A stretch of DNA of 64,000 bases from Candidatus Magasanikiibacteriota bacterium (GTDB lineage Bacteria; Patescibacteriota; Patescibacteriia; Magasanikbacterales; UBA922): contig JACPSK010000001.1 in assembly GCA_016193335.1 (NCBI GenBank), positions 585,440-649,439 on the forward strand, given 5' to 3'. A model generated the notes under the pieces. It did not search any database, was not told where the DNA came from, and saw only the letters and a list, made by a program, of their open reading frames with translations. A program made the translations under genes and the position numbers. Shown piece by piece: positions 6,740 to 59,944 of this stretch; within the stretch, counting starts at the first letter, position 1; each line of letters begins with the position of its first letter.

Positions 6740-7396
6740 TTGACATCGTCTGGAAAATATGCTATTATTCTTGGTTATTTTATGGCGGCCAAATTGACCA
6801 TTTGGCCTTGCGGTAGTATACTATCGCTCGCCTTATTTCTACATATGAAACAGAAAAAAAACCACAGGATTTTACAAGGCTCTATATTTAATGTAGTCAT
6901 GTCTTTGGTAGTAGGTTTTAGCCTTTTTCCCCGTAGCGTTTTTGCCACAGGTTTGGGTTCTTTTATGAGTACTTTTTCTGGCTTTTTTGTCGAAAACAGT
7001 GCAGCGGCGGTTGTTTCTAAGTCTACTTTTCCTCAGATGGCCGATGTAGAGCCTGTTTATGAAATGTGGGTTTTGGCCACTGCGTATTCAAGCGATGTGT
7101 GGCAGACCGATTCAACTCCGTGCAAACCAGCCATGCAGAATTTTGACCTTTGTGAACACTTCAAGCTGTACGGTGTGGCGGATACTATAGCCGCAAATTT
7201 TTTGCCTTTGGGCAAACGCGTTGAATTTATTGACGCCGGGAAATTTGGTCTTGCTGACTCTCAATATGTCGTTCGTGATCGCATGAATGGGAAATATAAT
7301 GGTACCGTACGCATAGACGTATGGATGCCTACTTATGAAGAGGCAAAACTGTTTGGCGCCCGATGGATAAAAATGAAGGTATACCCTTACAAATAA
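6740..7396 (+). CDS. 3D-domain (MltA-like double-psi beta-barrel) cell-wall protein with an N-terminal TM/signal segment; the true start may be the internal Met near 6845
   Basis: C-terminal ATAYSSDVWQTD...GVADTIAANFLPLGKRVEFIDAG...VVRDRMNGKYNGTVRIDVWMPTYEEAKLFG matches the 3D domain with its three conserved Asp positions. Confidence 0.65.
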   Translation: MTSSGKYAIILGYFMAAKLTIWPCGSILSLALFLHMKQKKNHRILQGSIFNVVMSLVVGFSLFPRSVFATGLGSFMSTFSGFFVENSAAAVVSKSTFPQMADVEPVYEMWVLATAYSSDVWQTDSTPCKPAMQNFDLCEHFKLYGVADTIAANFLPLGKRVEFIDAGKFGLADSQYVVRDRMNGKYNGTVRIDVWMPTYEEAKLFGARWIKMKVYPYK

Positions 7397-10755: not shown

Positions 10756-11113
10756 AAAAAAATAGAATATATCAGATATGATTTTACGGTATTGGAGGTT
10801 AATTTTTTCTTAAGACAATTTTTTTGGGTTTTTGCGTACAATGTGGGAGATTGACAGAAAGATAGGATTCTGTTACATTAATTTATCACTTTTTAACTTA
10901 TTCCGGTTGAGAAGTGTTTGTTCTTTACAGGCTTTGAGCATAAGTCTATACAATTATCTATCAAGATAGATGCGTTCTTGACACAACGATAGACGAGGTT
11001 TCGGGCTTTATTTCGTTCCGAGTTATGCAAAAAAATCTGAGATTGTTTTTTCCGTTTTAAAAGGTTTTTTGGCACGACTTGGAACTGAGGCGTTCGAACT
11101 TGGGAGGGGACAA

Positions 11114-11908
11114 ATGGGAGACGCAAAGGTTGTGAGTTTGAGGGGCGAGCAGAATTCCAGCTCAGGTGGGCCGGGGGGACCGGAAAGGCCGTCTTCTTTC
11201 CTTGACAAGAGACGAGTTACCTGGCTGGTTACCGCTTTGGCGGTTTTGACGATGGCTCTTTTGTTTTTCGCCTTCGTTGCGGTCTGGACCAGGCTCAAGG
11301 CTTACGATGAGAGCCATGTCTTGGTGGGCGTTGAGAGTTTTCGCGCCTTGTCTTACCAAGCCTCATTGAGCGAGTCTTTGAGCAAAAACAACATTGTCTT
11401 TTATGAAGCGCTGAAACAGGCTCTGGACGAAAAGAAGTCCCTCGAGCTCCGGATTCAAGCCTTGCAGAAGGGACCCGGCTTTGGGGAAGGCTATGTTGAG
11501 GGCCGTCGGGAGGCCCTTGACCATGTGGCGCTACGTCTCGGCCTGGGAAGCGAGTTTTTCGACCAGCTTCTCTGGACTGCCGAGATTTGCCATGGTGACT
11601 CTAACTTGGTCTGGATGCGGGATCAACTCGCCGGCATCGCGGCCGGCTTTGGCTGCTCCTGCTACTGTTCAGAGCTGGTTAATCTGACAATTAAAGATGC
11701 CAGCCTGGAGCAGGTGCTTGCCTTTCTCGCAAGGGAATCCGGCGTTCCTGTGTTTAACGACGCCAAGATCACAGGAAACGTGACGTTGCGGTTCACAGAC
11801 ATACCCGCAAGTCTCGCGCTTCAGGCCATCGTAGGGCAGTTTGGCGCGGATCTGCGCTTCGAAGACGGCGCATACCATGTCGTGCCCTTTGTTGTAGGGG
11901 GAAAGTAA
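11114..11908 (+). CDS. GC-rich membrane-anchored protein with a C-terminal STN / secretin-N-like domain
   Basis: The ORF opens at TTG 11069. ATG 11114 is preceded by GGGAGGGG, so I prefer it. A single TM helix (LVTALAVLTMALLFFAFVAVW), a coiled-coil-like region, then VNLTIKDASLEQVLAFLARESGVPVFNDAKITGNVTLRFTDIPASLALQAIVGQFGADLRF. This resembles the STN / Secretin_N fold of TonB-dependent receptors and secretins. Codons are GC3-rich, unlike the neighbouring genes. Confidence 0.6.
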   Translation: MGDAKVVSLRGEQNSSSGGPGGPERPSSFLDKRRVTWLVTALAVLTMALLFFAFVAVWTRLKAYDESHVLVGVESFRALSYQASLSESLSKNNIVFYEALKQALDEKKSLELRIQALQKGPGFGEGYVEGRREALDHVALRLGLGSEFFDQLLWTAEICHGDSNLVWMRDQLAGIAAGFGCSCYCSELVNLTIKDASLEQVLAFLARESGVPVFNDAKITGNVTLRFTDIPASLALQAIVGQFGADLRFEDGAYHVVPFVVGGK

Positions 11909-20149: not shown

Positions 20150-20225
20150 GGGCCAGTAGCTCAATTGGTAGAGCGCCTCGTTTGCACCGAGGAGGTAGCG
20201 GGTTCAAATCCTGTCTGGTCCACCA
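20150..20225 (+). tRNA. tRNA-Ala (TGC), CCA encoded
   Basis: Cloverleaf with anticodon loop TTTGCAC, the G3:U70 alanine identity pair, T-loop TTCAAAT and a 3' CCA. Confidence 0.85.
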
Positions 20226-20374
20226 GCCTTCGACAAGGCTTCGGCTGGCACAGCCAGCGAAAAGGTTTGGCGAAGGATCTCCTTCTTCGCTGAAGCTGCG
20301 AAGGGCAGTACAAAACAGATCATATTGTTGCGGTTCGGCAACGCCGTCTCTCGCAGCGCGCCACAATTTAACGA

Positions 20375-20446
<72 letters not shown>

Positions 20447-20521
20447 CATCTTCGTTCCGACAGTAGCCGGAACTTCAAAGTGTGGGCACGACGCTTGCGC
20501 TGTGAAGCTTTAGCGAAGCAG

Positions 20522-20598
20522 CGGGGTGTAGCTCAGTTGGCTAGAGCGCGTGGTTTGGGACCATGAGGCCGTAGGTTCAAGTCCTATCACCCCGACCA
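20522..20598 (+). tRNA. tRNA-Pro (TGG), CCA encoded
   Basis: Acceptor CGGGGTG/CACCCCG, anticodon loop TTTGGGA with G37, T-loop TTCAAGT, 3' ACCA. Confidence 0.85.
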
Positions 20599-20636
20599 AG
20601 TTAGACCATGAATTGTGTGATAAAAGTAGAAACAGA

Positions 20637-20661
20637 AAAGCGCCCAAAAGAGGCGCTTTTC
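20637..20661 (+). terminator. Terminator after the tRNA Ala-Phe-Pro operon
   Basis: AAAAGCGCCCAAAAGAGGCGCTTTT. Confidence 0.6.
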
Positions 20662-20825
20662 ATATTGCCATACAGTATAAGTAGTTAACTTAAAACTGTA
20701 CCATACAGTATAAAAGATTCCTGGGAAATGTCAAATTGTTGGGTTGTGGATTGTGGTTTCAATTAGTTTTGTCCATTAAATAAAAATCCTGTCAGATAGA
20801 CGGGATTTTTGATGATTCTCTAGAG

Positions 20826-20902
20826 TGGAGCGGTAGACCGGATTCGAACCGGCGACCTCCTCCTTGGCAAGGAGGCGTTCTAGCCAACTGAACTACTACC
20901 GC
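20826..20902 (-). tRNA. tRNA-Gly (GCC), CCA encoded
   Basis: The reverse complement GCGGTAGTAGTTCAGTTGGCTAGAACGCCTCCTTGCCAAGGAGGAGGTCGCCGGTTCGAATCCGGTCTACCGCTCCA is a canonical tRNA-Gly. Confidence 0.85.
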
Positions 20903-20981
20903 GTGTATCAACAATTTATGACTCACTTTTGACCGTTAAATTGTCTCAGTGAGCTATTATTAATTGTAAATTGCTGTCTTG

Positions 20982-21054
20982 TTGCGGGACCCGGATTCGA
21001 ACCGGGAACCTTCGGGTTATGGGCCCGACGAGCTGCCAATTGCTCTATCCCGCT
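20982..21054 (-). tRNA. Initiator tRNA-fMet (CAT)
   Basis: The reverse complement has the anticodon stem TCGGG/CCCGA with three consecutive G:C pairs, a CAT anticodon, an unpaired 1:72 position (A1/A72), and an anticodon arm nearly identical to E. coli tRNA-fMet (CTCGTCGGGC.CATAACCCGAAGGT). Confidence 0.75.
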
Positions 21055-21322
21055 ATGGGAGTACGGATAGTACGGATGATACAAGATCTACGGATAATTT
21101 AGAACATAAATTTATGCACATGGGATATGATAACATGTGCATCATTATATTTCAAGTGTCTGTATAGGGCGCAGATCCAAGCTGTTATTGACGAATGGGC
21201 TGTTTTCTGGTTAGATAAAAAATATCCATCGCGGAAGCACATCGGGGCGGAATCAAAACAACCCAATAGATGGGTTGTTTTGATTCTTATCTGTCGTCTG
21301 AGTATAGATCAATGTATGGAGT

Positions 21323-21733
21323 TCATAGCATAGTGTCCAGTTTTAGTTTGGTTTTGACCAACAACATGATGTATGCGTCCAATCCCTTTTTGGTTTTTTC
21401 CTCCAAAGACGCGAAATGCTCGTCCGTACCTGTATCGAGAATCAGTCTCATTTCATTCAGATCCTGTTCCACGGCTTGTTTTGAAAGTCTAAGTTCGTCA
21501 GGAACACGCGCCCACCAATTTCCAAGTTCCGCTTTCTGAGGATGAGTAAGTACCCGGGGCATCATTTCTCTGATAAAGTTATCTGCCGCTTCTGTCGTAA
21601 GATTTATTTGCGCTTGGATATAATCTATTTTGTATTCTTGGGTTTGCGGTTTGCTGGGAAGACCTGCAAGAGAAAATTTGCTTTTATAACTCAATTCACC
21701 CACTTTTTTATTTTTTTCCTCATTTTTTGCCAA
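21323..21733 (-). CDS. Hypothetical protein
   Basis: 136-aa ORF with Lys/Glu-rich hydrophilic composition and no recognisable domain. Confidence 0.4.
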   Translation of the reverse strand: MAKNEEKNKKVGELSYKSKFSLAGLPSKPQTQEYKIDYIQAQINLTTEAADNFIREMMPRVLTHPQKAELGNWWARVPDELRLSKQAVEQDLNEMRLILDTGTDEHFASLEEKTKKGLDAYIMLLVKTKLKLDTML

Positions 21734-22004
21734 TACTGTACCTGAGATCGGAACGGTTTTTTTTTACGAGACTGACGGCTGTCTGGCCTGGCGTTAGTGC
21801 CGGCCGCGCGTATCCGATGTCGTATGCGTATATATTCTCTGAATCGGTTTCAGGAATGATTGATTTGTCGATCTGTATGCTCGTATCGGCGGTATCTTTG
21901 CCCGAGTAAGAAATTTTATCCGCGCATCCTTGGCCCGTGAATATCAGAGCCGCGGAAAACATTAAAAGCGTATACAATGCTTTGCGTTTTGTCGTTTGGT
22001 TCAT
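21720..22004 (-). CDS. Hypothetical small lipoprotein/secreted protein
   Basis: Signal peptide with a lipobox-like LIFTGQGC. 94 aa. Confidence 0.4.
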   Translation of the reverse strand: MNQTTKRKALYTLLMFSAALIFTGQGCADKISYSGKDTADTSIQIDKSIIPETDSENIYAYDIGYARPALTPGQTAVSLVKKNRSDLRYSIGKK

Positions 22005-22355
22005 ATGTTTTAAGATTAAAAATAAAATATATAAATAAGAAATGGCCGTCTATTTCGTGTTCATTTTTTTAAAATAAGCTTTGGCTCAGTAAAAGCGCGG
22101 CCTCTATTTATAGATGACGCAGAAGAGTTTGTTTTCTTACAAGACAGAGATCCATAGGATAAACTTCGTCCTTACTACGCTTGGCGATTTTGAATAGAGA
22201 TCGGAGCGTTTGTATGTAAAATTTTTGTGCGTTTACATATTGGCTAAGCTCGAAGAAGGGAGACCTATCTGTTGTTTGTTGAACGACTTTGAGAACTGGC
22301 GCAGAAACCCTTTTACAAAAAAATCGCCCATGGAAGCGATTTTTTTAGAAAAAAT

Positions 22356-22430
22356 TGGAGCGAGCGACCGGAATCGAACCGGCGTCATCGGTTTGGAAAA
22401 CCGAGATAATAACCATTATACGACGCTCGC
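22356..22430 (-). tRNA. tRNA-Gly (TCC), CCA encoded
   Basis: The reverse complement GCGAGCG...TCGGTTTTCCAAACCGA...GCCGGTTCGATTCCGGTCGCTCGCTCCA has anticodon loop TTTCCAA and T-loop TTCGATT. The D-arm is irregular. Confidence 0.65.
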
Positions 22431-31620: not shown

Positions 31621-32775
31621 TTATAGCAGATTTTTTTGTTTCGCGTTTCGTGTTTTATTTAAATGTTCGTAGGCTCGTTTGGTTGCCATGCGGCCGCGAG
31701 CGCTACGTTCCAATAGACCTATTTGCAAAAGATAGGGTTCATATACTGATTCAATAGTCTCCATTTCTTCGGCAGTGGCGGCCGCGAGCGTATTCAAACC
31801 CACCGGGCCTCCGTCGAATTGCTCTATAATGATCTTTAAGATTTTGCGGTCGATTTCATCGAGTCCGTATTCGTCTATGTTTAACATGTTCAGGGCTTCG
31901 CTGGTGATGTTTAGATTTATTGATGAATCCGCATGCCGTATTTCCGCGTAGTCGCGCACTCTTTTAAGAAGTCTATTTGCAACACGGGGAGTGCGCCTGG
32001 CGCGTAGGGCAATGTTTTTTGAGGCTTCTGAGTTTATTTTTACGCTTAAAATATCGGCGTTTCTCTCTATAATTTGTTCTATCTCAGGATCTTCATAATA
32101 ATTGAGATGATACACATGGCCAAATCGATCCCTGAGAGGTGACGAAAGAAGATTCAATTTGGTGGTCGCTCCTATCAGCGTAAATTTCTGCAATGGCATC
32201 CTTAGAGTTCGGGCTGTTGGGCCTTTGCCTATAATTATATCTAAGGCAAAATCTTCCATGGCGCTATAGAGCACTTCCTCTATAGTTTTGTTCATGCGAT
32301 GGATTTCATCTATAAATAGAATATCGCCTTGGTTGAGATTGGAAAGTATGGCCGCCAAGTCTCCCACCCGCTCGAGGGCAGGTCCTGAGGTTACGCGGAT
32401 AGAGACCTCCATTTCGCGGGCTATGATATGAGCCAAAGTCGTTTTTCCAAGACCCGGATTACCATATAGGAGAATATGTTCCATGGGTTCTTCTCTTTTT
32501 CGGGCGGCTTGCATTGAGATGGAAAGTGGAATTTTTATATGTTTTTGCCCTATGAATTCTGCAAGCTGTTTTGGTCGCAGGTTTACTTCTACAATTGTTT
32601 CTTCATTATTTTCAGAAACAGCGGGATCTACCACTCTATTATTCAATATATGTTCTGGTATCAATTCTTTGGATTGCATACTTTTGCTATTATACGAGTT
32701 TACATAGCCTGGGGCAAGCAGGCTGTTTTTTTTGGGTTTTTTTATGAATCGTGTTAAGGTGTATCCTGCATACAA
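31621..32775 (-). CDS. ruvB: Holliday junction ATP-dependent DNA helicase RuvB (true start probably the internal MQSKEL, about 32679)
   Basis: Walker A LLYGNPGLGKTTLA, sensor LFIDEIHRM, and a C-terminal winged-helix domain. The palindromic terminator at 32770-32806 overlaps the N-terminal codons of the listed ORF. Confidence 0.9.
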   Translation of the reverse strand: MYAGYTLTRFIKKPKKNSLLAPGYVNSYNSKSMQSKELIPEHILNNRVVDPAVSENNEETIVEVNLRPKQLAEFIGQKHIKIPLSISMQAARKREEPMEHILLYGNPGLGKTTLAHIIAREMEVSIRVTSGPALERVGDLAAILSNLNQGDILFIDEIHRMNKTIEEVLYSAMEDFALDIIIGKGPTARTLRMPLQKFTLIGATTKLNLLSSPLRDRFGHVYHLNYYEDPEIEQIIERNADILSVKINSEASKNIALRARRTPRVANRLLKRVRDYAEIRHADSSINLNITSEALNMLNIDEYGLDEIDRKILKIIIEQFDGGPVGLNTLAAATAEEMETIESVYEPYLLQIGLLERSARGRMATKRAYEHLNKTRNAKQKNLL

Positions 32776-32806
32776 AACACGGGTTCAAATAACCCGTGTT
32801 TTGTAT
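32770..32806. terminator. Strong palindromic (bidirectional) terminator
   Basis: ATACAAAACACGGGTTCAAATAACCCGTGTTTTGTAT, downstream of the ParB-Crp fusion gene. Confidence 0.65.
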
Positions 32807-32895
32807 GCGGACGAATTTTGCAGAGCGTTCGTCCCTTCGCCTTGCCTTTATCTCTACTTGAGATAGAGATTCGGCGCTCCTTTTCGAAGTCTTGG

Positions 32896-34644
32896 CTAGC
32901 TGTCCAGTCTGCTCGGTCTCAGACGAGCCATGTCGTGGACCATGAACCCCCGTCCAGAACCCAGGTCGGAAATGACTCCGGCTTCTTTGATTCTACCCAT
33001 GACTCGGATCACGGTCTCGAGCGTCATCCCGGTGAGCTCGCCGAGCCGTTGCCGGGTAAGATCCAAGGACACGAGGCGTCCACGGCTGTCTCCTTCCACG
33101 CCGAACCTGGTGGCGAGCAAGAAGAACAAGTAGCGTAGTCTCGTCTCCGCCGAGGCGTTGGCCAGCAAGCTTGCACGCAGAGCGTCTCTCTGCGCACGTC
33201 CGCCGAGGCGGCCCCAGAACAAGCTGCGCAATCCCGGGTCTTTCTGGAATTTCTCCCAGAATGTGGCCGATGGAACCCGAATCAATACACCAGGATCCAG
33301 GGTCAGGATAGTTTCCGTGTACTTGGTGGTGCCACAGTACATATCCCCAAGGATTTCTCCACTGCCGTGCACATCGAGAATGCCGGTGTACTCACCGTTT
33401 TCATATTCTCGGACAACGCGGCCAGAGAGCAGGAGGAAAACGTCCTCAGGATCTGCACCCTGTCGGTACACGTGGGCCCTGCGCCGGTAGGCTTCGATCT
33501 CGCCGAGATCAAGCAGGTAGCTGGGCCAAGTTCCGGGGAGTCCGCCTTCCCGCTTGATCTGGCTCGCTACACGGCTGATTCTGGCGTTCGCTTTTTCTCC
33601 GTGCGATTGATAGGCTATGCTGGGCCTAAATGCCGGAGGATCAGGCCGGTCAATAACCAGGGCAGAGGCATCCGTCCGAGTGTAGACAGGGTGTCCAGTA
33701 TCTGGTCTCTTTTTTTCAGTTGCCGCCTCGTCGTCCGGAACACGGGTTTCCTCGTCTTCTCGGCTGTCTTCATGGTCATCATCTTCCCATTCCAGATCAG
33801 CCGGTTCAGGCAAGTCCTCAGGCTTATCAGTGAGAGGCTGGTCGCCCTCAGCTCTTGCTTCTGCGGCCGCTGCTCTAAGGGCGCGTTCGGCCAGTTGCTG
33901 AAAATACTGAATGGCCCCTTTGACCGAGATCTTGGCCATGCCATGGTAAACGTTGTTCAGCTCTCGGAGAGCTGCGCGCATGGCATCGTGAGTAGTACAG
34001 AAACGAATCAGCACTTCTGCCACGCCCAGCTTCAGACGATCGTCTGCTACTGCCTCCTGTAAGTCTTCAGGGAGCTTCAAGAGGTCGAGTCGCTTGCAGA
34101 TATGACCCTGGGAACGGCCCACCTTCTTCCCGAGTTGGCCTTGGGTAAAGCCGCCTTCATCGATCGCTTGCTGGAAGGCGTGGGCTTCCTCAATCGGGTT
34201 GAGGGGCGTTCTGACCAGGTTTTCCACGAGGCCGATCATGTAGGACTGCGGATCAGCAACCCTGATGACCGCGCGGATCAACTTTCTGCCGAGCCTGACG
34301 TGCGCCCGCCAGCGAGTCTCGCCAGCCACTAACATAAACAAACCCGTCTCAGCATGATCAGGCGCTGGCTTCAACACCACGGCGCTGATCAGGCCGTCGG
34401 CCTCGATTGAGTCGGCCATCTGTTGGATAGCCTCCTCCGTGAAACGCTTTCGACCCTGTTTGGGGTCAGCCACAATCCGAGCTACGGGAACCATGTATTC
34501 CCTGCTCGGGGCTTCTTCAACGTCCTCTCGGTGAACGACTTCTGCAAGTGTGCTGATAGACATGCCTAATGCCTCCCGTATCTTGGTTTTCCGCAGGACA
34601 AAAGACCCTGGAATACAATATCTAACTACCAGTTCCATTGTCAA
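32896..34644 (-). CDS. GC-rich fusion protein: ParB/Spo0J-like N-terminal and HTH domains, an acidic linker, then a Crp/Fnr-type cNMP-binding domain with a winged HTH
   Basis: N-terminal ParB motifs (GETRWRAHVRLG, LVENLVRTPLNPIEEAHAFQQAIDEGGFTQGQLGKKVGRSQGHICKRLDLLKLP). Asp/Glu-rich linker. C-terminal cNMP-binding beta-roll (VFLLLSGRVVREYENGEYTGILDVHGSGEILGDM) and Crp-type HTH (TRQRLGELTGMTLETVIRVMGRIKEAG). A likely alternative start is MSISTLAEV at 34563, preceded by GGGAGG. GC3-biased. Confidence 0.7.
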   Translation of the reverse strand: MTMELVVRYCIPGSFVLRKTKIREALGMSISTLAEVVHREDVEEAPSREYMVPVARIVADPKQGRKRFTEEAIQQMADSIEADGLISAVVLKPAPDHAETGLFMLVAGETRWRAHVRLGRKLIRAVIRVADPQSYMIGLVENLVRTPLNPIEEAHAFQQAIDEGGFTQGQLGKKVGRSQGHICKRLDLLKLPEDLQEAVADDRLKLGVAEVLIRFCTTHDAMRAALRELNNVYHGMAKISVKGAIQYFQQLAERALRAAAAEARAEGDQPLTDKPEDLPEPADLEWEDDDHEDSREDEETRVPDDEAATEKKRPDTGHPVYTRTDASALVIDRPDPPAFRPSIAYQSHGEKANARISRVASQIKREGGLPGTWPSYLLDLGEIEAYRRRAHVYRQGADPEDVFLLLSGRVVREYENGEYTGILDVHGSGEILGDMYCGTTKYTETILTLDPGVLIRVPSATFWEKFQKDPGLRSLFWGRLGGRAQRDALRASLLANASAETRLRYLFFLLATRFGVEGDSRGRLVSLDLTRQRLGELTGMTLETVIRVMGRIKEAGVISDLGSGRGFMVHDMARLRPSRLDS

Positions 34645-34784: not shown

Positions 34785-34828
34785 CCCATATATTGTGGTT
34801 AAAATATATTTGGGCCACTATATATGGG
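34785..34828 (+). promoter_or_regulatory. Pair of NrdR-box-like palindromes
   Basis: CCCATATATTGTGG (34785-34798) and CCACTATATATGGG (34815-34828) match the NrdR box consensus (acaCwAtATaTwGtgt). Their 30-bp centre spacing is close to the usual three helical turns. They sit between the promoter and the nrdJ start. Confidence 0.55.
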
Positions 34829-34898: not shown

Positions 34899-37800
34899 AT
34901 GGGGTCAACACAAACGAAGAGTTTCCAAGGTCTTGCTCTCGGGCAAGGGGAAGATACCGAGTTTACATACAATGAGAACGGGCTTAGATTCAAGAGAAAA
35001 TTCAGTGAAGAGGGCAAAAGTCCTTTTGACTTGGTCGAATATGAGTTAAGGACCTCTACGATTCGAGAGCCGGACGGAACCGTGGTGTTTGAAATGAAAA
35101 ATCTGGAGATTCCCAAACAGTGGTCTCAAGTGGCCACGGATATTATCGCTCAGAAATATTTCAGAAAGGCCGGCGTGCCGCAGTATCAAGAAGATGGAAA
35201 CCCAAAATTGAACCCTGACGGATCTACCATGCTTGGATCCGAAACGAGCGCCAAACAGACTATGCATCGTCTGGCCGGCACTTGGCGCTATTGGGGCGAA
35301 AAGTACGGGTATTTCGCGTCTCGTGAAGACGCGCAGATTTTTTATGATGAATTGGTAGTGATGCTGCTCAAGCAAATGGCTGCCCCCAATTCTCCGCAAT
35401 GGTTTAATACAGGGCTCCAATGGGCCTATGGCATAGATGGTCCTGCTCAGGGACACTATTATGTGGATCCTGACACCGGGGCCATGACCCGTTCAAAAGA
35501 CGCTTATACGCATCCACAGCCGCATGCTTGTTTCATTCAGTCTGTGGAAGACGACCTGGTAAACGAAGGTGGAATAATGGATCTCTGGGTTAGAGAAGCT
35601 CGTTTGTTTAAATACGGTTCAGGCACAGGCACCAATTTTTCCGGTTTGCGGGGCAAAGGCGAACCTTTGTCCGGCGGTGGCAAATCAAGCGGCCTTATGA
35701 GCTGGCTCAAGATAGGAGATCGCGCGGCCGGCGCCATAAAATCCGGAGGTACCACCAGACGAGCCGCGAAGATGGTCATTTTGGACTTGGATCACCCTGA
35801 TATTGAAGAATTTGTTAATTGGAAAGTGGGAGAAGAAAAGAAAGTCGCGGCCATGATAGCCTCCGGGTATCCTTCTGATTATGAAGGCGAAGCGTACCAG
35901 ACCGTGTCAGGACAGAATTCAAATAATTCAGTGCGCGTGCCGAACAAGTTTATGGAAGCGCTGGAAAATAGTGGTAGCTGGAATTTTACCTGGCGCACAG
36001 ATGGAACCATTTGCAAAACAATTAAAGCCCGGACACTTTGGGACCAGATCGCTTACGCGGCTTGGGCTTGCGCTGATCCGGGACTTCAATTTGATGACAA
36101 TATAAACGAATGGCATACCTGTCCTGAATCCGGCAAAATTCGCGGCTCCAATCCTTGCAGTGAATACATGTTTTTGGATAATACATCTTGCAATCTCGCT
36201 TCTCTTAACCTTGAACATTTTTTTAATCAGGAAACTCAGACTTTTGACGTTGACTTGTTTAAACATGGAGTGCGTTTGTGGACCGTGGTCTTGGAAATAA
36301 GCGTCCTCATGGCTCAGTTTCCGAGCAAAGAAATAGCCGAGATGAGTTATGAGTTTAGAACGCTTGGTCTTGGCTATGCGAATATCGGTTCTGTATTGAT
36401 GACTGCGGGTATCCCATACGAATCTGAAGAAGCCTACGCGTTTACCGGCAGTGTTACTGCCATTATGACTGCGGAATCCTACAAAGCCAGCGCTGAAATG
36501 GCCAAATTTTTGGGTCCTTTTCAAAAATATGAATTGAATAAATCTGATATGCTTCGGGTGATGAGAAATCATCGGCGCGCATCCTTTAATGTCCCGGACA
36601 ATGAATACGAAAAATTGAGCGTAAAGCCTCAAGGTATCAGGCCAGAGCATGCCCCGGCTTATCTTCTCGCCGCCGCTCGTGAGCTTTGGAATGAAGCCGT
36701 GGATATGGGTGAAAAATATGGATACAGAAACGCCCAAACCACGCTTTTGGCCCCTACAGGCACTATTGGTCTTTTGATGGATTGCGCCACCACGGGGGTG
36801 GAGCCTGATTTTGCTTTGGTTAAATTCAAGAAATTGGCAGGCGGGGGATATTTTAAAATTGTGAATGAAGCAGTGCCAGTGGCGCTTAGAAATTTGGGGT
36901 ATGCCGAAGAGCAGGTAACTGATATCGTAAATTATATGAAAGGGGTGGGAAGCATCAATGAGGCTCCCCACATCAATTCCCTTTCCTTAAAAGAAAAAGG
37001 ATTCACGGATGAGGATATTAAGAGTGTGAACAAAGCTTTGGGCAGTGCGTTTGAAATACAATTCGCCTTTAATGTGTGGACTTTGGGTGAAGACTGTTTA
37101 AAGCGAGTTGGATTTGGCGCGGGAGAATATAATGACCCGAATTTCAATATGCTCAAAGCAATGGGTTTTAGCAGAGAACAGATCGAGGGGGCCAATGAAT
37201 ATGTATGCGGGACCATGACCATAGAAGGCGCTCCTTATCTCAAAGAAGAACATTACCCGATTTTTGATTGCGCGAACAAGTGCGGCAAAAAAGGAAAACG
37301 CTTTATACATTGGAGAGGGCATTTGCGACAGATGGCTTCGGCCCAGCCTTTTTTGTCAGGAGCCATTTCAAAGACGATAAATATGCCGAATGAGGTGACG
37401 GTGGAAGATGTAAAACAAGCATATTGGGAATCATGGGAATTGTGTTTGAAAGCTGTTGCTTTGTATCGTGACGGATGCAAGCTTAGCCAGCCACTTTCCA
37501 CTTCTTCGGACGCGAAAGAAGATGATGATGTTTCGCTTGAGTCTAAACCTTTGGCAAAAAAGGAAGAAGTCATATCAGAAGTCCCGAGTTCTGTCGTTGC
37601 GCCGACCACTTCTCCTCTGTCCGCCGCATCAATTCCTGAATTTGAATACGACGATGCTTCGGATATAGCCCGCGCCATACAAGAGGCCAGTAAATTACTC
37701 AAACAGCATATTCCGGATTCTCACGCTTTGGAGAGTTATAGCAAAGAAGGAGAAGTAACCGATCATCGCATCTATATTCATGGAGAAAAGCGAAGTCTAC

Positions 37801-38435
37801 CGGCCAAACGCAGTGGTATAACGGTTTCGGCTCGGATTGGAAATCAAAAGATATGGCTGAGAACCGGAGAATACCCGGATGGCAAACTCGCGGAGATTTT
37901 TATTGATATGTACAAAGAGGGGGCCGCTTTCAGAAGTTTGTTGAATTTGTTCGCTATTTCAATCTCCATAGGCCTTCAGTATGGAATTCCGCTCGAAAAA
38001 CTCGTGGATAAATTTACTTTCACCCGTTTTGATCCTGCGGGCATGACTGATCACCCGAATGTAAAAATATGCACTTCGGTTATAGATTGGGTGTTTCGTG
38101 TTTTGGGAATGGAATATCTGGGGAGAACCGATTTTGTCCAAGTTTCACCCAAGGGCGTGCAAAAAAATAAATTTGAACAAATGGCCAAGCTTGCGGAAAT
38201 CACCACCAAGCAAACATCTCTCGAGCTTGGGCGTTCCACTGCCCAGGAAGAAATGGATGCTCAAGCGGCATTACCCAGTTTAGAGAATCCCAAGACCATC
38301 GGTGGAGGTATTGACGAGGCCTTGAGTACTATGATGGGAGACGCGCCGGCTTGTCCCACCTGCGGACATATAACCGTTCGGAACGGGAGTTGTTACAAGT
38401 GTCTAAACTGCGGGGATAGTTTGGGGTGCAGTTAA
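34899..38435 (+). CDS. nrdJ: Adenosylcobalamin-dependent ribonucleoside-diphosphate/triphosphate reductase (class II RNR, NrdJ) with a C-terminal Zn ribbon
   Basis: 1178 aa. Class II RNR core with active-site NPCSE(Y) and TLLAPTG. C-terminal CPTCGHITVRNGSCYKCLNCGDSLGC. Confidence 0.92.
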   Translation: MGSTQTKSFQGLALGQGEDTEFTYNENGLRFKRKFSEEGKSPFDLVEYELRTSTIREPDGTVVFEMKNLEIPKQWSQVATDIIAQKYFRKAGVPQYQEDGNPKLNPDGSTMLGSETSAKQTMHRLAGTWRYWGEKYGYFASREDAQIFYDELVVMLLKQMAAPNSPQWFNTGLQWAYGIDGPAQGHYYVDPDTGAMTRSKDAYTHPQPHACFIQSVEDDLVNEGGIMDLWVREARLFKYGSGTGTNFSGLRGKGEPLSGGGKSSGLMSWLKIGDRAAGAIKSGGTTRRAAKMVILDLDHPDIEEFVNWKVGEEKKVAAMIASGYPSDYEGEAYQTVSGQNSNNSVRVPNKFMEALENSGSWNFTWRTDGTICKTIKARTLWDQIAYAAWACADPGLQFDDNINEWHTCPESGKIRGSNPCSEYMFLDNTSCNLASLNLEHFFNQETQTFDVDLFKHGVRLWTVVLEISVLMAQFPSKEIAEMSYEFRTLGLGYANIGSVLMTAGIPYESEEAYAFTGSVTAIMTAESYKASAEMAKFLGPFQKYELNKSDMLRVMRNHRRASFNVPDNEYEKLSVKPQGIRPEHAPAYLLAAARELWNEAVDMGEKYGYRNAQTTLLAPTGTIGLLMDCATTGVEPDFALVKFKKLAGGGYFKIVNEAVPVALRNLGYAEEQVTDIVNYMKGVGSINEAPHINSLSLKEKGFTDEDIKSVNKALGSAFEIQFAFNVWTLGEDCLKRVGFGAGEYNDPNFNMLKAMGFSREQIEGANEYVCGTMTIEGAPYLKEEHYPIFDCANKCGKKGKRFIHWRGHLRQMASAQPFLSGAISKTINMPNEVTVEDVKQAYWESWELCLKAVALYRDGCKLSQPLSTSSDAKEDDDVSLESKPLAKKEEVISEVPSSVVAPTTSPLSAASIPEFEYDDASDIARAIQEASKLLKQHIPDSHALESYSKEGEVTDHRIYIHGEKRSLPAKRSGITVSARIGNQKIWLRTGEYPDGKLAEIFIDMYKEGAAFRSLLNLFAISISIGLQYGIPLEKLVDKFTFTRFDPAGMTDHPNVKICTSVIDWVFRVLGMEYLGRTDFVQVSPKGVQKNKFEQMAKLAEITTKQTSLELGRSTAQEEMDAQAALPSLENPKTIGGGIDEALSTMMGDAPACPTCGHITVRNGSCYKCLNCGDSLGCS

Positions 38436-55281: not shown

Positions 55282-55523
55282 GTTTTCACAGGATATAGTA
55301 TGGAGGCTTATTGGTCAATGAATGATATATGAGCTTGAGATTGACATCCAAAGCTATCTATGGTATAAAATCTAGTCAAAAGTTTCTCCGACTGTTTTTT
55401 TCTCTTTATTAACACAAAATAAAGGGCAGAAGTCAGTCGGGAGAAACGCCCGACCAGTTGGCGGTCTGGGGCTCCGGCATGGCGCTGGAGTGAGAGGCTG
55501 CCATTGCGTAGGAGGAAGTCCCC

Positions 55524-56399
55524 ATGGGACGACGTAGTAGGAGTGAAATCTCCGCGATCATGAGCGGAGCAGGTGTCGTTACCGCTGTCTGGACCAAGCT
55601 CGACGCCGCCGTGAGGAAGCTCGACAGCGCGGCTGCGGATGCCTGTCTCTATCGGCTGGCGACGGAGGAGGGAGACGATGTCATCCTCGAGATGGCGAAG
55701 GCTGCCGTGGCGGCACAGAAGAAGGGCACGGCGGCTCCTGTGGCGGCGCCGCAACTGCCGCCTCCGTCCGTCATAGACATCTCGAAGTTCTTCGCGCCGG
55801 TCGCGGACAGTGAGGCCATCATCCTGCTCACGCCGCAGTTCGGTAGCGAAGAGGCGGCGCGGATCGTGTACCAGTGCCGTCAGCTCGCCATGGACGAGGG
55901 CTACACCGGCTTCATCTTCTGGCGCGCCGCGGCCGGCTTCCTGTGGCGGACGCACGGTCCGCTTTTCGGCACCTGCCGCGAGAACTGGAAGTACCTCCAG
56001 ACCTGGAGGCTGAAGAACGACCCGACCACGACCGACTCCCTGGCCTTCTTCGTCCCGCGGCTGCTCACTGGCAGCACGGGCAAGGCGGTCACGGACCAGC
56101 GCAAGCTCCTCGTCGAGACGCGAGCCAAGTACACGCTCCCCGAGCCCTTCCTCAAGGACTTTGGTTCGGCCGCGTACGTCGCCGGACTGACGCTCTCGCA
56201 CCACCGCATCACGAGCGAGCGCACGCCGCTCGACCTGCTGTGGGCGCGCTGCGAAACGTTCCGCGAGGATGGCGGTCGCCTCGGCTTCGGCTTCTTCCTC
56301 GAGTCGAGCGGCCTCGGCTGCCTCAACTGGGACGACGGCCTCCCGGTCGACTTCATCGGCATCTTCCCCCTGGGGGTGGTGCCGATCCTCGGTCACTAG
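55524..56399 (+). CDS. DGR target (variable) protein; GC-rich; the C-terminal about 38 aa are encoded by the variable repeat
   Basis: RBS AGGAGG precedes ATG 55524. Strong GC3 codon bias on the plus strand. The C-terminus ...REDGGRLGFGFFLESSGLGCLNWDDGLPVDFIGIFPL is encoded by the VR. Confidence 0.85.
   Translation: MGRRSRSEISAIMSGAGVVTAVWTKLDAAVRKLDSAAADACLYRLATEEGDDVILEMAKAAVAAQKKGTAAPVAAPQLPPPSVIDISKFFAPVADSEAIILLTPQFGSEEAARIVYQCRQLAMDEGYTGFIFWRAAAGFLWRTHGPLFGTCRENWKYLQTWRLKNDPTTTDSLAFFVPRLLTGSTGKAVTDQRKLLVETRAKYTLPEPFLKDFGSAAYVAGLTLSHHRITSERTPLDLLWARCETFREDGGRLGFGFFLESSGLGCLNWDDGLPVDFIGIFPLGVVPILGH
56259..56372 (+). repeat. DGR variable repeat (VR)
   Basis: About 114 bp aligning to 56739-56852 with about 20 mismatches. 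Every mismatch is at an A in the TR copy (e.g. GGC/GAC, TTC/AAC, CTC/AAC, GTC/AAC). The 3' end ATCGGCATCTTCCCCCTG is identical in both (IMH-like). Confidence 0.9.
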
Positions 56400-56738
56400 G
56401 ATCCTCGGTACTGACACGAAGTCGGTACCTTGGTCCATCGGTCTTTGGGCCCCACCCGCAACGCATTTCGGTGCAACGCGCGTGAGGCTTCTTCTTTTAT
56501 ATACAAAATGTGATATACTTTTTTTGCATTATACCGACAGCACCGGCGTCCACGGATGCCGGCCGATAATGTCTGGCAACAGAATTGTAGAATTACAAAA
56601 CGTACGCGTTTTGTAAGAACATCCCTGTTGTTTGTGGGTTCACACACCCCGTGTTGGACGTTAAGAGACAGCGGTTTCACATTCGATACAGCTCGGAGAG
56701 TTTTCAACGAGCAGTGGCACGGACAGCGCTCAACACTT

Positions 56739-56898: not shown

Positions 56899-57282
56899 TT
56901 ATTTCAAACTGTGTAGCCACCCGCCGATCATTTTACCGATTACTGCCAGGCGTTCTGACAATTGCGCGTATTTGTTATTGTCCAGTGCTTTGATTTCCCA
57001 AAGAATTTGCAGAAAGAATTTTAACGCGTCAAATTGAGCACTTAATTTTTTAACAATGGCTAGCTTGTTTGTCCGTTCCGCATAACCGGCCGCGAGCGCC
57101 AGTGATAAAATATCGGTAAAAATTGCATCAATTTTTATACCCAATGAATACCGTGTGAGTCGTGGCAAATGAATTAAAAAACTATGCCAGAGTTTATAGG
57201 CGTTACTCAAACCATCAACGATCGGAATGTAGCTCTGGGGGGGGGGATTCCTAGTTTCGGATTGCGTAAGCAATTGCTTCAT
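56899..57282 (-). CDS. avd: Accessory variability determinant (Avd)-like four-helix-bundle protein (start placed at MKQLL; the ORF opens at 57330)
   Basis: About 127 aa. ...LPRLTRYSLGIKIDAIFTDILSLALAAGYAERTNKLAIVKKLSAQFDALKFFLQILWEIKAL...ERLAVIGKMIGGWLHSLK resembles Bordetella-phage bAvd and the 23S-rRNA-intervening-sequence four-helix-bundle family. It is on the strand opposite to the TR and RT. Confidence 0.7.
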   Translation of the reverse strand: MKQLLTQSETRNPPPQSYIPIVDGLSNAYKLWHSFLIHLPRLTRYSLGIKIDAIFTDILSLALAAGYAERTNKLAIVKKLSAQFDALKFFLQILWEIKALDNNKYAQLSERLAVIGKMIGGWLHSLK

Positions 57283-58281
57283 AGCTATGGTGATATTATT
57301 TCTATATCCAATCTTCTTGCCGCTTGGCAAGAGTTTGAAGTTGGAAAGAGTAAGAAATATGACGTTGTTCTGTTTGCGGATAGGTTAATGGACAACATCC
57401 TAGCACTCTATACGGATTTAGTAAACCGGACATATATCCACGGTGGTTATCGTGAATTTCGCATCAACGATCCCAAACCGCGTCTGATTCACAAAGCGAG
57501 TGTGCGCGACCGTTTGCTACATCATGCGGTACATAGAATGCTCTATCCTTTTTTTGATCGAATTTTTATTTTTGATTCCTTTTCTTGTCGGACCAATAAG
57601 GGCGTGCGTGCGGCGATTAACCGATTCAGAAAATGCGCGCACAAGGTCGGGCGCAACCATACACGCACAGTATGGGTCTTGAAATGTGATATTCGAAAGT
57701 TTTTTGCGAATATTGATCATGAAATTTTGTTGCGTATTCTTGATTATTATATTCCGGATAAAAGAATTGTGGATTTGCTGGAGAATATTATTGTAAGTTT
57801 TTCTATGACATCTGGTACTTCAGTTGGTTTGCCGTTGGGAAATTTGACCTCGCAGTTATTTTCCAACATTTATTTAGACCGACTCGATAGATGGGTGAAG
57901 CATCAGTTAAAAGAAAAGCATTATATTCGTTACGCGGATGATTTTGTGTTTTTATCCGCGGACAGAAATTATTTGCTGTCCTTGATTCCACAGGTGCAAC
58001 ATCTTTTATCCTGCACCTTAAAATTAGATCTGCATCCGAATAAATTTTTTTTAAAAACTATTGCGTCAGGTGTGGATTTTTTGGGCTGGATACACTTTTC
58101 AGATCACCGTGTACTTCGAAAAGTGACAAAACGGCGAATGACGAGAAAATTGGCGGAAAATTTCAAACCGGAAGTCCTGCAGTCGTATTTGGGATTACTC
58201 TCGCATGGGAATACGTTTAAGCTGCAAGAGACGATTAAGAATCAATTTTGGTTGGGCGGCACGCATATGTTAATGGGGTAG
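57184..58281 (+). CDS. DGR reverse transcriptase
   Basis: DGR-RT N-terminal block (NLLAAWQEFEVGKSKKYDVVLFADRLMDNILALYTDLVNRTYIHGGYREFRINDPKPRLIHKASVRDRLLHHAV), motif GLPLGNLTSQLFSNIYL and the catalytic IRYADDFVF. An alternative TTG start near 57262 is possible. Confidence 0.9.
   Translation: MPEFIGVTQTINDRNVALGGGIPSFGLRKQLLHSYGDIISISNLLAAWQEFEVGKSKKYDVVLFADRLMDNILALYTDLVNRTYIHGGYREFRINDPKPRLIHKASVRDRLLHHAVHRMLYPFFDRIFIFDSFSCRTNKGVRAAINRFRKCAHKVGRNHTRTVWVLKCDIRKFFANIDHEILLRILDYYIPDKRIVDLLENIIVSFSMTSGTSVGLPLGNLTSQLFSNIYLDRLDRWVKHQLKEKHYIRYADDFVFLSADRNYLLSLIPQVQHLLSCTLKLDLHPNKFFLKTIASGVDFLGWIHFSDHRVLRKVTKRRMTRKLAENFKPEVLQSYLGLLSHGNTFKLQETIKNQFWLGGTHMLMG
57237..57246. repeat. G10/C10 homopolymer tract inside the avd coding sequence and the RT 5' region
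   Basis: CTGGGGGGGGGGATTCC. It encodes GGG in the RT frame (if the ATG at 57184 is used) and NPPPQ in avd on the opposite strand. Confidence 0.85.
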
Positions 58282-58486
58282 TAGAGCTACTATAAGTAAG
58301 TAAGCTTGATAAAGCCGTTTTTTTATTTTATAGTCAAAAGTCAATTTGCGTGAGACGCAAAGACATCGCAATGGATTGCGGCTTTTTTGCGTCTTGCGAC
58401 CGGAATATCGGTTTCGAGACAGACTCGGGCTTTGCTCGGGTTTCAGGACGACAATTGGGTTTGAGAATGAAAAGAGGAGACAGCAA

Positions 58487-59944
58487 GTGAACAGGTTGGC
58501 CAAAATTTTTGTTGTTTTGTTCTATGTGTCTTGTTCCTGTCCTGAAGAGGACGGGGCGGTCATTGCGGATGTTTCGAGTTTTGGCAAGGACGCCGCCGCT
58601 TCCGTTGACACGACCGTGGCCGATATGAACGGCCAACTCGGGTTGTGCTACGTGGCTGAAGATGGCACGCCTTGCGACGATGAGAACGCCTGCACCACGG
58701 GCGATGAGTGCGAGGATGGACATTGCATCGGCGCCACGAGCGTGGTCTGCAAGAGCGACAGCGCTTGCGTGCCGACGAGCTGTGACCCACAGACCGGCTG
58801 TCTTATTGGCGAGACCTTGCCTGATGGCTCGGCCTGCAGCTTGGCTTGCCATGTGGAGGCTTACTGCGAAGCAGGCGACTGCTTGCCTGCCCAAGGCTCC
58901 AAGGTCCAATGTCCGAAGAGCGAGAACCCTTGCGTGGATCACCTGGAGTGCGACTCGGCCAACGGCCAGTGCACGATCCAGATCTTCAAGCCCGAGGGAG
59001 CTTCTTGCGACACGGACGTGAACACTTGCACGTTGGAGACCTGTGACGGTAACGGCCTATGCGCGGCTCAAGGCAAGAACGATTGCGCCGGCCTCAAGGC
59101 CATTGATCCGTGCTGGGCTTACCAGTGTTTGCCGGGCAAGGGTTGCGTGAAGCAACCGGGCGTGTTCTTCTTCAGCCTCTCTTGCGACGACGGGAGTCCT
59201 TGCACGATCAACGACGAATGTCAGCTCTCCGAGGGCGGCCTCGGTGGTTGCAAGGGAACTCCGCTGAAGACGAACGACGGCAACCCCTGCACCAGCGACT
59301 CCTGTGTCGCGGGTGAGGTCTTGCACGAGCCCATCAACGGCGCGCCCTGCGACGACGGCAACCCCTGCAGCGTCTCGGTCTGTGAGGGCAAGATCTGCGT
59401 CTACTACTCGCCGAGCGACTGCACAGACGGCAACCCCTGCACGGACGACGCCTGCAGTGACACCAGCGGCTGCGTCTACTTCGTCAACGACGGCAACCCT
59501 TGCGACGACGGCAACCCCTGCACCAGTGACTTTTGCAAGCAAGGGGTTGGCTGTGAGGCCGAAGTGCTGGTCGCGACGCCCTGTGAGGATGGGAGTCTCT
59601 GTAGCCTCGAGGACTTCTGCTTCGCGGGTGTCTGTCAGCCTGGCGCGAAGAGTCTCGGCTGCACAGACGGCAACCCCTGCACAGACGACGCCTGCCAACC
59701 GGCCAAGGGCTGCGTGTTCACGAACAACGCCAAGCCCTGCGACGACGGCAGCGCCTGCACCGAGGGGAGCTTCTGCAAGAACGGCTCTTGCAGTGGCTAC
59801 GCGGTGCTGAAGACCTGCCTGGACAACAACTCTTGCACCGAGGACATCTGCACCCCGCTGATTCCGGACTGCGTCTTCCCCACGAAGACCGATGGCGTCC
59901 CTTGCGGCGGAGACAAGATCTGTCTCTCGGGCGTCTGCCTGTAG
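58487..59944 (+). CDS. GC-rich secreted cysteine-repeat protein (CDDGNPC / DGNPCTDDAC repeats, Myxococcales-type Cys-rich repeat-like)
   Basis: GTG 58487 is preceded by AAGAGGAG. Lipoprotein-like signal MNRLAKIFVVLFYVSCSC, then at least 12 tandem Cys-rich units (...DGNPCTSDSC..., APCDDGNPCSVSVC, TDGNPCTDDACSDTSGC, NPCDDGNPCTSDFC, TDGNPCTDDACQPAKGC, KPCDDGSACTEGSFC). The ORF opens at TTG 58346. Confidence 0.75.
   Translation: MNRLAKIFVVLFYVSCSCPEEDGAVIADVSSFGKDAAASVDTTVADMNGQLGLCYVAEDGTPCDDENACTTGDECEDGHCIGATSVVCKSDSACVPTSCDPQTGCLIGETLPDGSACSLACHVEAYCEAGDCLPAQGSKVQCPKSENPCVDHLECDSANGQCTIQIFKPEGASCDTDVNTCTLETCDGNGLCAAQGKNDCAGLKAIDPCWAYQCLPGKGCVKQPGVFFFSLSCDDGSPCTINDECQLSEGGLGGCKGTPLKTNDGNPCTSDSCVAGEVLHEPINGAPCDDGNPCSVSVCEGKICVYYSPSDCTDGNPCTDDACSDTSGCVYFVNDGNPCDDGNPCTSDFCKQGVGCEAEVLVATPCEDGSLCSLEDFCFAGVCQPGAKSLGCTDGNPCTDDACQPAKGCVFTNNAKPCDDGSACTEGSFCKNGSCSGYAVLKTCLDNNSCTEDICTPLIPDCVFPTKTDGVPCGGDKICLSGVCL

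Follow-up and report, generated by a model that had tools for sequence, protein, structure and literature searches.

What does a bacterium gain from a protein that begins like a ParB and ends like a Crp/Fnr transcription factor? The question is raised by one gene on the minus strand of contig JACPSK010000001.1 (NCBI GenBank assembly GCA_016193335.1, Candidatus Magasanikiibacteriota bacterium), which lies within the 64,000 nucleotides from contig position 585,440 to 649,439 that were analyzed here. This whole stretch is called the window in the following, and nucleotide positions refer to it. It could be shown that the gene is real and intact and that it encodes an orphan-type ParB module, a linker and a complete Crp/Fnr protomer in a single chain. 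The two modules are well known, and their combination, found in one uncultured population, makes a new domain architecture. As to its function, we tentatively favor an acquired chimera that serves as a Crp-anchored dimeric regulator, or as a local DNA-organizing protein that tethers two ParB modules, a reading that falls a little short of probable.

The minus-strand open reading frame (ORF) 32896..34644 contains neither an internal stop nor a frameshift, so that it is one ORF, as an earlier note on this DNA had read it, and not two genes split by an overlooked stop or frameshift. It gives 582 amino acids (aa) from a TTG at 34644, 580 aa from an ATG at 34638 and 555 aa from an ATG at 34563. Among these candidate starts, a Shine-Dalgarno motif precedes only ATG 34563, which also lies downstream of the promoter-like site at 34644-34615, and these signals point to ATG 34563 as the probable true start. 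The NCBI product (MBI2990085.1, “Candidatus Magasanikbacteria bacterium”) likewise has 555 aa, and residue numbers refer to this form throughout; it is annotated as “ParB/RepB/Spo0J family partition protein”. A 100% identical protein with the same flanks occurs in independent assemblies of at least seven Logan runs of one project (SRR12113383, -84, -85, -90, -419, -422 and -425) and in the NCBI metagenome-assembled genome (MAG). The contig DNA in these assemblies is 99.99-100% identical to the window, with cobA-nrdJ on one side of the gene and ruvB on the other.

In a Pfam search, all four domains of the fusion exceed their gathering cut-offs, and the protein thus belongs both to the ParB-CTPase fold superfamily (PF02195) and to the Crp/Fnr family. 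This bears out the single-frame ParB-Crp fusion that had been proposed from the letters, including the GETRWRA motif (aa 81-87) and the ParB helix-turn-helix (HTH) in the N-terminal part. Among the NCBIfam models, TIGR00180 (parB_part) is matched with 101 bits (cut-off 58). The score for the Noc model TIGR04285 (122 bits) stays below its cut-off of 315, and the protein is far under the cut-offs of the RepB, FNR, CRP, NtcA and FixK equivalog models. The Pfam search of the fusion protein returned neither ParB_C (PF23552), which canonical homologues have, nor the KorB domain (PF08535). In the AlphaFold2 model, aa 21-240 and aa 321-552 each form a confidently predicted module, mostly with a predicted local distance difference test (pLDDT) above 90, and the input alignment of 37 rows contained no other fusion. 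In Foldseek comparisons, the C-terminal module fits onto complete protomers of CRP, NtcA and GlxR with target-normalized template modeling (TM) scores of 0.80-0.88, and the structural match of the N-terminal module is ParB of Myxococcus xanthus. The long C-helix is the dimerization helix in Crp/Fnr proteins, and the model suggests that the fusion protein would dimerize through its own C-helix (aa 443-469). The coordinates of all features are collected in the table.

Table. Features of the ParB-Crp fusion gene and its surroundings (window positions; residues of the 555-aa form; GC, fraction of G+C; cNMP, cyclic nucleoside monophosphate)
Feature	Residues	Window position	Strand	Remarks
Fusion coding sequence		32896..34563	-	555 aa + stop; start ATG 34563 backed by Shine-Dalgarno motif
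Promoter-like TTGACA-N18-TATTGT (also N16-GATATT)		34615..34644	-	consensus match only; AT-rich host-like DNA
Shine-Dalgarno GGGAGG		34572..34577	-	8 nt upstream of ATG 34563
ParB_N (CTPase fold), PF02195	24-116	34216..34494	-	55 bits, cut-off 26.3
Box II GETRWRA	81-87	34303..34323	-	Thr83 replaces first Arg of GERRxRA
Box III ENLVR	114-118	34210..34224	-	E, N and R kept; Gln replaced by Val
HTH_ParB, PF17762	121-196	33976..34203	-	59.1 bits, cut-off 22.6
Helical extension of ParB DNA-binding module	197-240	33844..33975	-	
Acidic Pro-rich disordered linker	245-320	33604..33831	-	pLDDT below 50; 76 residues
cNMP_binding beta-roll, PF00027	358-442	33238..33492	-	41.9 bits, cut-off 27.5
Long C-helix	443-469	33157..33237	-	AlphaFold2 secondary structure; CRP/NtcA protomer superposition
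HTH_Crp_2 winged HTH, PF13545	481-549	32917..33123	-	44.8 bits, cut-off 27; PF00325 25.7 bits
Structured 3' region, three hairpins		32740..32895	-	folds better than shuffles, z = -7.5
Compositional island		32810..34612		GC ~0.55-0.62 vs flanks 0.20-0.45; gene and short flanks in nrdJ-ruvB spacer

With canonical ParB proteins (7BNK, 1VZ0, 6T1F), the fusion shares the ParB_N CTPase fold and the HTH over about 160 residues (93-98 bits), and the canonical features Q-x-R, GE-R-R-A, EN--R and NPIEEA are largely kept. The nucleotide pocket was judged by alignment with the CTP-bound ParB of M. xanthus (7BNK) and 149 homologues. Residues Q36, R38, S52, G57, G81, E82, R84, R86, E114, N115 and R118 are retained. 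The fusion has GETRWRA instead of the canonical GERRWRA, and the first Arg of this motif, replaced by Thr in the fusion, is Arg in 148 of the 149 homologues; the sole exception, P0004, also reads GETRWRA. Besides R83T, QPR is changed to QGR (P37G), LQPI to ISAV (Q60S/P61A) and ENLQR to ENLVR (Q117V), the last at a position that is Gln in 121 and Val in 6 of the 149 homologues. In Caulobacter ParB, the exchange R103A at the equivalent position results in weak or no CTP binding and no clamp closure (PMC8367383); the study of the CTP-independent ParT (PMC12260392) contains no residue-level information on the GERR motif. CTP binding by a pocket of this composition seems doubtful, and CTP clamping is uncertain because Thr replaces the first Arg of GERRxRA. 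The CTP-dependent clamp envisaged in the earlier note is therefore uncertain: Q36, R38, E82, R84, R86, E114, N115 and R118 are in place, but the first Arg is lost and QPR, LQPI and ENLQR are altered.

P0004, P0282 and P0283 form a separate ParB-like lineage of 632-649 aa, which likewise has GETRWRA and carries a long C-terminal extension ending in a Cys-rich motif. The 90%-identity cluster of P0004 includes a 649-aa member on 6 contigs of up to 490 kb. This lineage is a natural comparison for the question whether a Thr at this position permits function.

The DNA-binding part of the ParB half departs from the canonical proteins as well. The residues that contact parS are changed (N157K, R160D, H181V and R183E, at positions conserved in 83-88% of the homologues), and a scan of the 64-kb window for the parS consensus gave 2 matches where 1.9 are expected, both more than 6 kb away from the gene. 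Recognition of a canonical parS thus appears unlikely from these residues. The LG(R/K)GL-type motif, which is the ParA-activating peptide, was not found at the N-terminus (MSISTLAEVVHREDVEEAPSREY, aa 1-23). The ~10 kb to each side of the gene contain no parA, and it had been rightly noted from the start that the gene is not beside one. Compared with canonical ParB, the fusion hence has no ParB_C, ParA partner, parS or ParA-activating peptide, and carries a Crp protomer at its C-terminus instead. Judged from its sequence, it is not a chromosome-partition ParB, because ParB_C, an adjacent parA and parS are missing and the parS-contact residues are altered; its database name is therefore misleading.

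The best profile matches to the N-terminal half are not canonical ParB proteins (at most 196 bits) but an orphan subgroup of ParB-like proteins with a length of about 300 aa (221-269 bits; P0042, P0015, P0043, P0010, P0103, P0167-P0169). Like the fusion, this subgroup lacks ParB_C and a ParA neighbor, and both have the post-HTH signature LVRxCxTxEEM, which in the fusion lies around Cys189 and Thr191 (VLIRFCTTHDAM) and was assigned to the helical extension of the ParB DNA-binding module. Unlike the fusion, to which they are only 33-37% identical, the orphan proteins keep GERRWR and have no Crp module. Their genes adjoin small Sigma70_r4 or HTH_8 genes, and there are hints of mobility and of joint action with a small regulator in this subgroup. 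P0010 shares an assembly with a Magasanikbacteria-like locus (L041), and the two contigs are equal in GC. Three orphan-subgroup genes (L013 5789-6739, L012 6879-7835 and L015 2351-3268) are GC-richer than their contigs (for L013, 0.58 against 0.49).

The C-terminal half belongs to a small unnamed subfamily of standalone Crp/Fnr proteins of 200-230 aa (P0007, P0025, P0031, P0125, P0155-P0161), to which it is 32-38% identical. Common to both are an N-terminal GGWP, RFGVxGDxRG, LTR and the recognition helix TLETVIR, which is kept in the fusion together with the surrounding motifs of the winged HTH. The full Crp/Fnr protomer fold is common to the fusion, the standalone subfamily and the solved FNR, NtcA, DNR and FixK2, and, by sequence, the solved proteins that come closest are FNR and NtcA and no cAMP receptors. 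In the cassette alignment, G406-D407...Y415-T416-E417 of the fusion stand against G71-E72...R82-S83-A84 of CRP, and moving the register by one residue in either direction leaves the conclusion unchanged. The position of CRP R82 is Y415 (K414 with the one-residue shift) and is Pro or His throughout the subfamily; the last three cassette positions of the subfamily are P-D-T, and P0163, an ordinary member of the family, keeps RSAT. The phosphate-binding cassette of cAMP and cGMP receptors, G-E-x...R-[ST]-A, is thus not found in the fusion protein, and its Arg is missing from the standalone subfamily just as from the fusion. What distinguishes the fusion from the standalone proteins is that three of the four conserved His are lost and no Fe-S Cys cluster is present. 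The FNR-type cluster for a [4Fe-4S] center is absent from the fusion protein, which has three Cys in total (156, 189 and 410), one of them within the Crp module.

Gating by cyclic nucleotides, which had been suggested for this protein, is very unlikely on this evidence, because the phosphate-binding Arg is missing from the Crp module and from its whole subfamily. What was called a canonical cNMP-binding domain is canonical in its fold but not in its phosphate-binding cassette, and the ancestral ligand site of the Crp module has probably been altered. Also the genomic setting of the standalone subfamily speaks for FNR/FixK-like respiratory contexts and not for cyclases. The neighbors are genes for a HemN-like radical-SAM protein, cbb3-oxidase fix genes, Usp and multihaem cytochromes, a setting that is typical for respiratory regulators of the FNR/FixK/Dnr type. 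The contigs have 66-71% GC, and one was binned as Myxococcota. In GC-rich genomes, in part those of Myxococcota, the subfamily looks like an uncharacterized regulator that controls a respiratory or anaerobic regulon. The HemN-like radical-SAM gene comes after the standalone Crp-like gene in three of four contexts. Sigma-54-type elements (TGGCAC-N5-(T)TGCA, one of them imperfect) precede the standalone genes (L003 ~7340-7360, L006 ~7860-7880, L010 ~5670-5690, L009 ~1390-1410), and a search for shared palindromes upstream of these genes returned only such promoters. FNR and CRP boxes were not found in the subfamily loci. In the window, FNR boxes stay at chance level, and FNR- and CRP-type boxes are neither enriched nor present in the nrdJ spacer.

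The two halves are joined by the Asp/Glu-rich linker that had been noticed from the translation. Residues 241-320 are rich in D, E and P and have a net charge of -16. In the phmmer search of the representatives described below, the linker has no homologues; matches end near aa 250 and restart near aa 338. Its GC at third codon positions (GC3) is 0.475 (aa 241-320, window 33604-33843), compared with 0.64 and 0.68 in the folded halves. From this composition, the linker may be of different origin, such as former non-coding or host DNA, or may evolve faster. The GC3 of the linker is near that of host genes.

How singular is this combination? When 1.84 billion cluster representatives were searched exhaustively with phmmer, the protein itself scored 1240 bits, and all others among the best 150 matches reached at most 126 bits and covered one half only. 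The full protein and a profile for each half, Crp and ParB, were also run against a word index of 5.8 billion clusters, and none of the matches listed had both Pfam families. The best 150 and the best 120 matches were inspected in these searches, so that divergent fusions below about 100 bits could escape. Ten long ParB matches carry no Crp or cNMP domain according to Pfam, and tblastn against plasmids and phages gave matches to the N-terminal half only, none covering more than 40% of the query. A 580-aa protein (P0287) that was considered as a second occurrence comes from the same sequencing project and represents this very gene, with its start called further upstream. A recent survey (Kaljevic et al. 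PNAS 2025, PMC12704722) describes that the ParB-CTPase fold has repeatedly been fused to lineage-specific partners, often at mobile or orphan loci. The partners it gives are HTH, ParB_C, HNH, UPF0020, methyltransferases, DUF3850, DUF4417, CBS, ASCH and MT-A70. Neither cNMP_binding nor HTH_Crp is named as a partner in the survey text or in seven supplement files. As far as these best matches and the survey text and files extend, the ParB-Crp architecture is undescribed, as the earlier note had supposed. The same source offers a precedent for sensor domains, since it reports fusions that join the ParB-CTPase fold to CBS in archaea, and to HNH, methyltransferases and DUF3850. Compared with the fusions listed there, the partner here is a complete dimeric DNA-binding transcription factor. 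An origin from a conserved operon pair (Rosetta stone) was considered and rejected, because none of the four contexts of the Crp subfamily and three of the ParB subgroup pairs a ParB with a Crp protein.

The locus itself indicates how the gene arrived. It is divergent from nrdJ (34899..38435, plus strand), as had been described before, and its neighbors are nrdJ, cobA, ruvB, bPH_2, DUF1294 and a gene for a thiamine pyrophosphate (TPP) enzyme. The gene is GC-rich, again as first noted (0.58 against 0.33-0.45 in the flanks; GC3 0.63 against about 0.40-0.50 in the neighbors), and the compositional step falls at the gene ends. For comparison, ruvB loci from 80 species-level genomes were sampled. 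In six Magasanikbacteria (L022, L023, L026, L032, L039, L042), nrdJ and ruvB are direct divergent neighbors with a gap of 308-533 bp, compared with 2220 bp here, and tblastn of either half of the fusion against the 80 ruvB loci found no match. In other relatives, this spot is taken by unrelated ORFs (L031, a membrane protein of 539 aa; L024, 237 aa; L033, 168 aa), and the nrdJ-ruvB spacer is therefore a variable insertion hot spot. It is thus shown that the fusion gene was horizontally acquired as a strain-specific insertion, and its position divergent from nrdJ reflects the insertion into the hot spot. No integrase or transposase adjoins the gene. A 12-nt flanking direct repeat was considered as a mobile-element signature and discarded as a chance match, since it lies inside the coding sequences of ruvB and nrdJ.

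The DNA that separates the fusion gene from ruvB holds a perfect inverted repeat (32768-32808; 18 bp, 5-nt loop), which is present only in the contigs of this organism. The region 3' of the gene is likely a terminator or an insulator towards ruvB, as its predicted folding suggests; the 18-bp hairpin has no U-tract and is therefore not a textbook intrinsic terminator. On the other side, two 14-nt palindromes (34785-34798, CCCATATATTGTGG; 34815-34828, CCACTATATATGGG) lie 30 bp apart upstream of nrdJ and resemble tandem NrdR boxes. These palindromes (34785-34828) belong to the nrdJ side. A simple zinc-ribbon pattern found no nrdR gene in the window, a strict NrdR-box pattern recovered almost none in the relatives, and the box scan of the spacer gave no evidence of a regulatory link between the fusion protein and nrdJ.

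How might such a protein work? In the reading that we favor, the Crp module would replace the missing ParB C-terminal domain as a constitutive dimer interface, via its C-helix, and its winged HTH would supply sequence-specific operator binding. The two tethered ParB modules could add a second DNA contact that is not parS, either non-specific or of new specificity, and the ParB N-domains could possibly engage each other in a nucleotide-dependent manner. Anchored at its site, the dimer would then serve as a regulator or local DNA organizer, resembling KorB plus KorA in one polypeptide. In the predicted structure, the order of parts mirrors that of a ParB clamp, with an NTP domain, a DNA-binding domain, a flexible linker and a C-terminal dimer. 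In the literature, KorB of plasmid RK2 is described as a CTP-dependent sliding clamp, which turns into a repressor once the site-specific HTH protein KorA holds it, and KorB, VirB and BisD are ParB-family proteins that act in transcription control and not in segregation. The likeness lies in the joining of a ParB module with a site-specific dimeric HTH factor, here in one chain. The differences are that the fusion matches KorB weakly (35 bits to 8QA8), has no Pfam KorB domain and has a degenerate nucleotide pocket. Compared with KorB, VirB and BisD, neither sliding nor target promoters are in evidence for the fusion.

Several observations weigh against this reading. The gene is a singleton in one population without an orthologue, and selection therefore has no evolutionary evidence behind it. 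Each half is the most divergent member of its family: among the 23 columns that are conserved to at least 90%, the ParB half deviates at 4, as much as in just 3 of the 149 homologues, and the Crp half at 24 of the 65 columns conserved in its subfamily. The exchange for Thr at the first Arg of GERRxRA stands where the Caulobacter R103A variant has CTP binding weakened or abolished, and the sensor domain has lost 3 of the 4 His positions conserved in the subfamily. Box scans of the window and of the subfamily loci found no candidate operator.

The main rival takes these observations further and regards the gene as an evolutionary accident in decay, i.e. a chimeric ORF, recently transferred and formed by recombination or stop loss between unrelated genes, in a donor or in situ, that is unselected and has little or no function. 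This fits a singleton among 1.84 billion representatives and, within the matches listed, 5.8 billion clusters, which has un-ameliorated GC, sits in a hot spot where other relatives carry unrelated strain-specific ORFs, has lost near-invariant ligand-pocket residues from both halves and contains a linker of distinct composition (GC3 0.475). However, the frame of 555 codons is intact and has a good Shine-Dalgarno motif and a promoter-like site, both modules are modeled with confidence above 90 from an alignment free of fusions, the DNA-binding helices and most core residues are conserved, and at least seven Logan runs and the NCBI MAG carry one and the same sequence, so that we consider decay rather unlikely. 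A more ambitious proposal is a true CTP-gated sliding clamp, whose N-domains close on CTP and whose Crp dimer is the gate, and which loads at a Crp-type site, spreads and silences. The course from N-gate to C-terminal dimer is that of ParB clamps, most pocket residues are retained, and GETRWRA occurs also in the P0004 lineage, whose presence on 6 contigs of up to 490 kb means that Thr may be tolerated; moreover, pocket motifs co-vary with the fusion partner according to PMC12704722. Yet R83T, P37G, Q60S/P61A and Q117V all fall within the nucleotide pocket, Caulobacter R103A belongs to the class with weak or no CTP binding (PMC8367383), and the same survey states that nucleotide specificity is not predictable from sequence. 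We think that such a clamp is unlikely. Its extension to a self-contained signal-responsive clamp, with the Crp sensor and operator dimer as C-terminal gate and with site recognition, ligand sensing and NTP-gated clamping or spreading united in one protein, is quite improbable.

The remaining explanations have far less in their favor. A cyclic-nucleotide-gated DNA-binding protein, in which cAMP or cGMP in the beta-roll switches DNA binding, would agree with the Pfam cNMP_binding match above cut-off, with the superposition on cAMP-bound CRP, GlxR and Vfr and with the G-x-x-x-G-D/E part of the cassette. It is nevertheless a very improbable one, given that the phosphate-binding Arg and the Ser/Thr-Ala are replaced (Y415-T416-E417; P-D-T in the subfamily), that the nearest solved relatives by sequence are FNR and NtcA, and that the subfamily adjoins cbb3 oxidase, Usp, HemN-like and cytochrome genes. 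An ordinary ParB for chromosome or plasmid partition, as implied by the NCBI annotation, would explain the TIGR00180 match above cut-off and the ~36-43% identity to chromosomal ParB proteins over roughly 160-180 residues. With no ParB_C, no parA within ~10 kb, no parS in 64 kb beyond chance, changed parS-contact residues, no LG(R/K)GL-type peptide in aa 1-23, and plasmid and phage records that match the N-terminal half only, we regard it as exceedingly improbable. Finally, the sharp GC jump at the gene borders could raise the suspicion of a sequencing or assembly artefact, with adjacent genes joined through a missed stop or frameshift or with a chimeric contig. This is hardly credible, as at least seven Logan runs and the NCBI MAG give the 100% identical protein between the same flanks, synteny with relatives holds for the genes on either flank, and no alternative frame shows homology across the linker.

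Some further features of the window may be recorded. Other compositional islands with GC 0.55-0.62 and GC3 0.60-0.76 lie at 11069-11908, 55308-56438, 58346-59944 and 62712-63965 in a genome of about 43% GC; two are without a Pfam match and one encodes a phosphoglucomutase. As several ORFs in the window lie in such islands, the ParB-Crp gene is one of several probable foreign genes. A reverse transcriptase gene (57184..58281, plus strand; RVT_1, 81.5 bits) is immediately followed by the very GC-rich ORF 58346..59944 (plus strand, GC3 0.76) with Cys-rich repeats of the Dicty_CTDC type, and 57184-59944 could be a retroelement or a diversity-generating cassette. Six tRNA genes (Ala, Phe, Pro, Gly, Met, Gly) are clustered on both strands at 20150-22430. 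In the ruvB sample, many MAGs titled “uncultured Gammaproteobacteria bacterium” (L022, L025, L029, L030, L032, L033, L041 and others) have a RuvB that is 64-73% identical to that of the window and show the nrdJ-ruvB-bPH-DUF1294 synteny of Magasanikbacteria; their labels look wrong.

The value of the finding is limited, because the gene is a singleton in one uncultured population of the candidate phyla radiation, its ligand pockets are both degenerate and the scans gave no target site. Its interest comes from the ParB family, whose CTP switches act beyond segregation, as in KorB, VirB, BisD and Noc, and for which the extent of their reuse by fusion is a current question. The gene shows that the C-terminal dimerization domain of ParB can be swapped for an entire Crp/Fnr transcription factor. 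If the signal-responsive clamp were true, it would be a fused equivalent of KorA and KorB and the first ParB clamp closed by a transcription-factor dimer. If the protein is functional, it would provide a compact natural model for the coupling of a site-specific regulator to a ParB clamp, and it would test whether nucleotide binding tolerates a Thr in place of the first Arg of GERRxRA.

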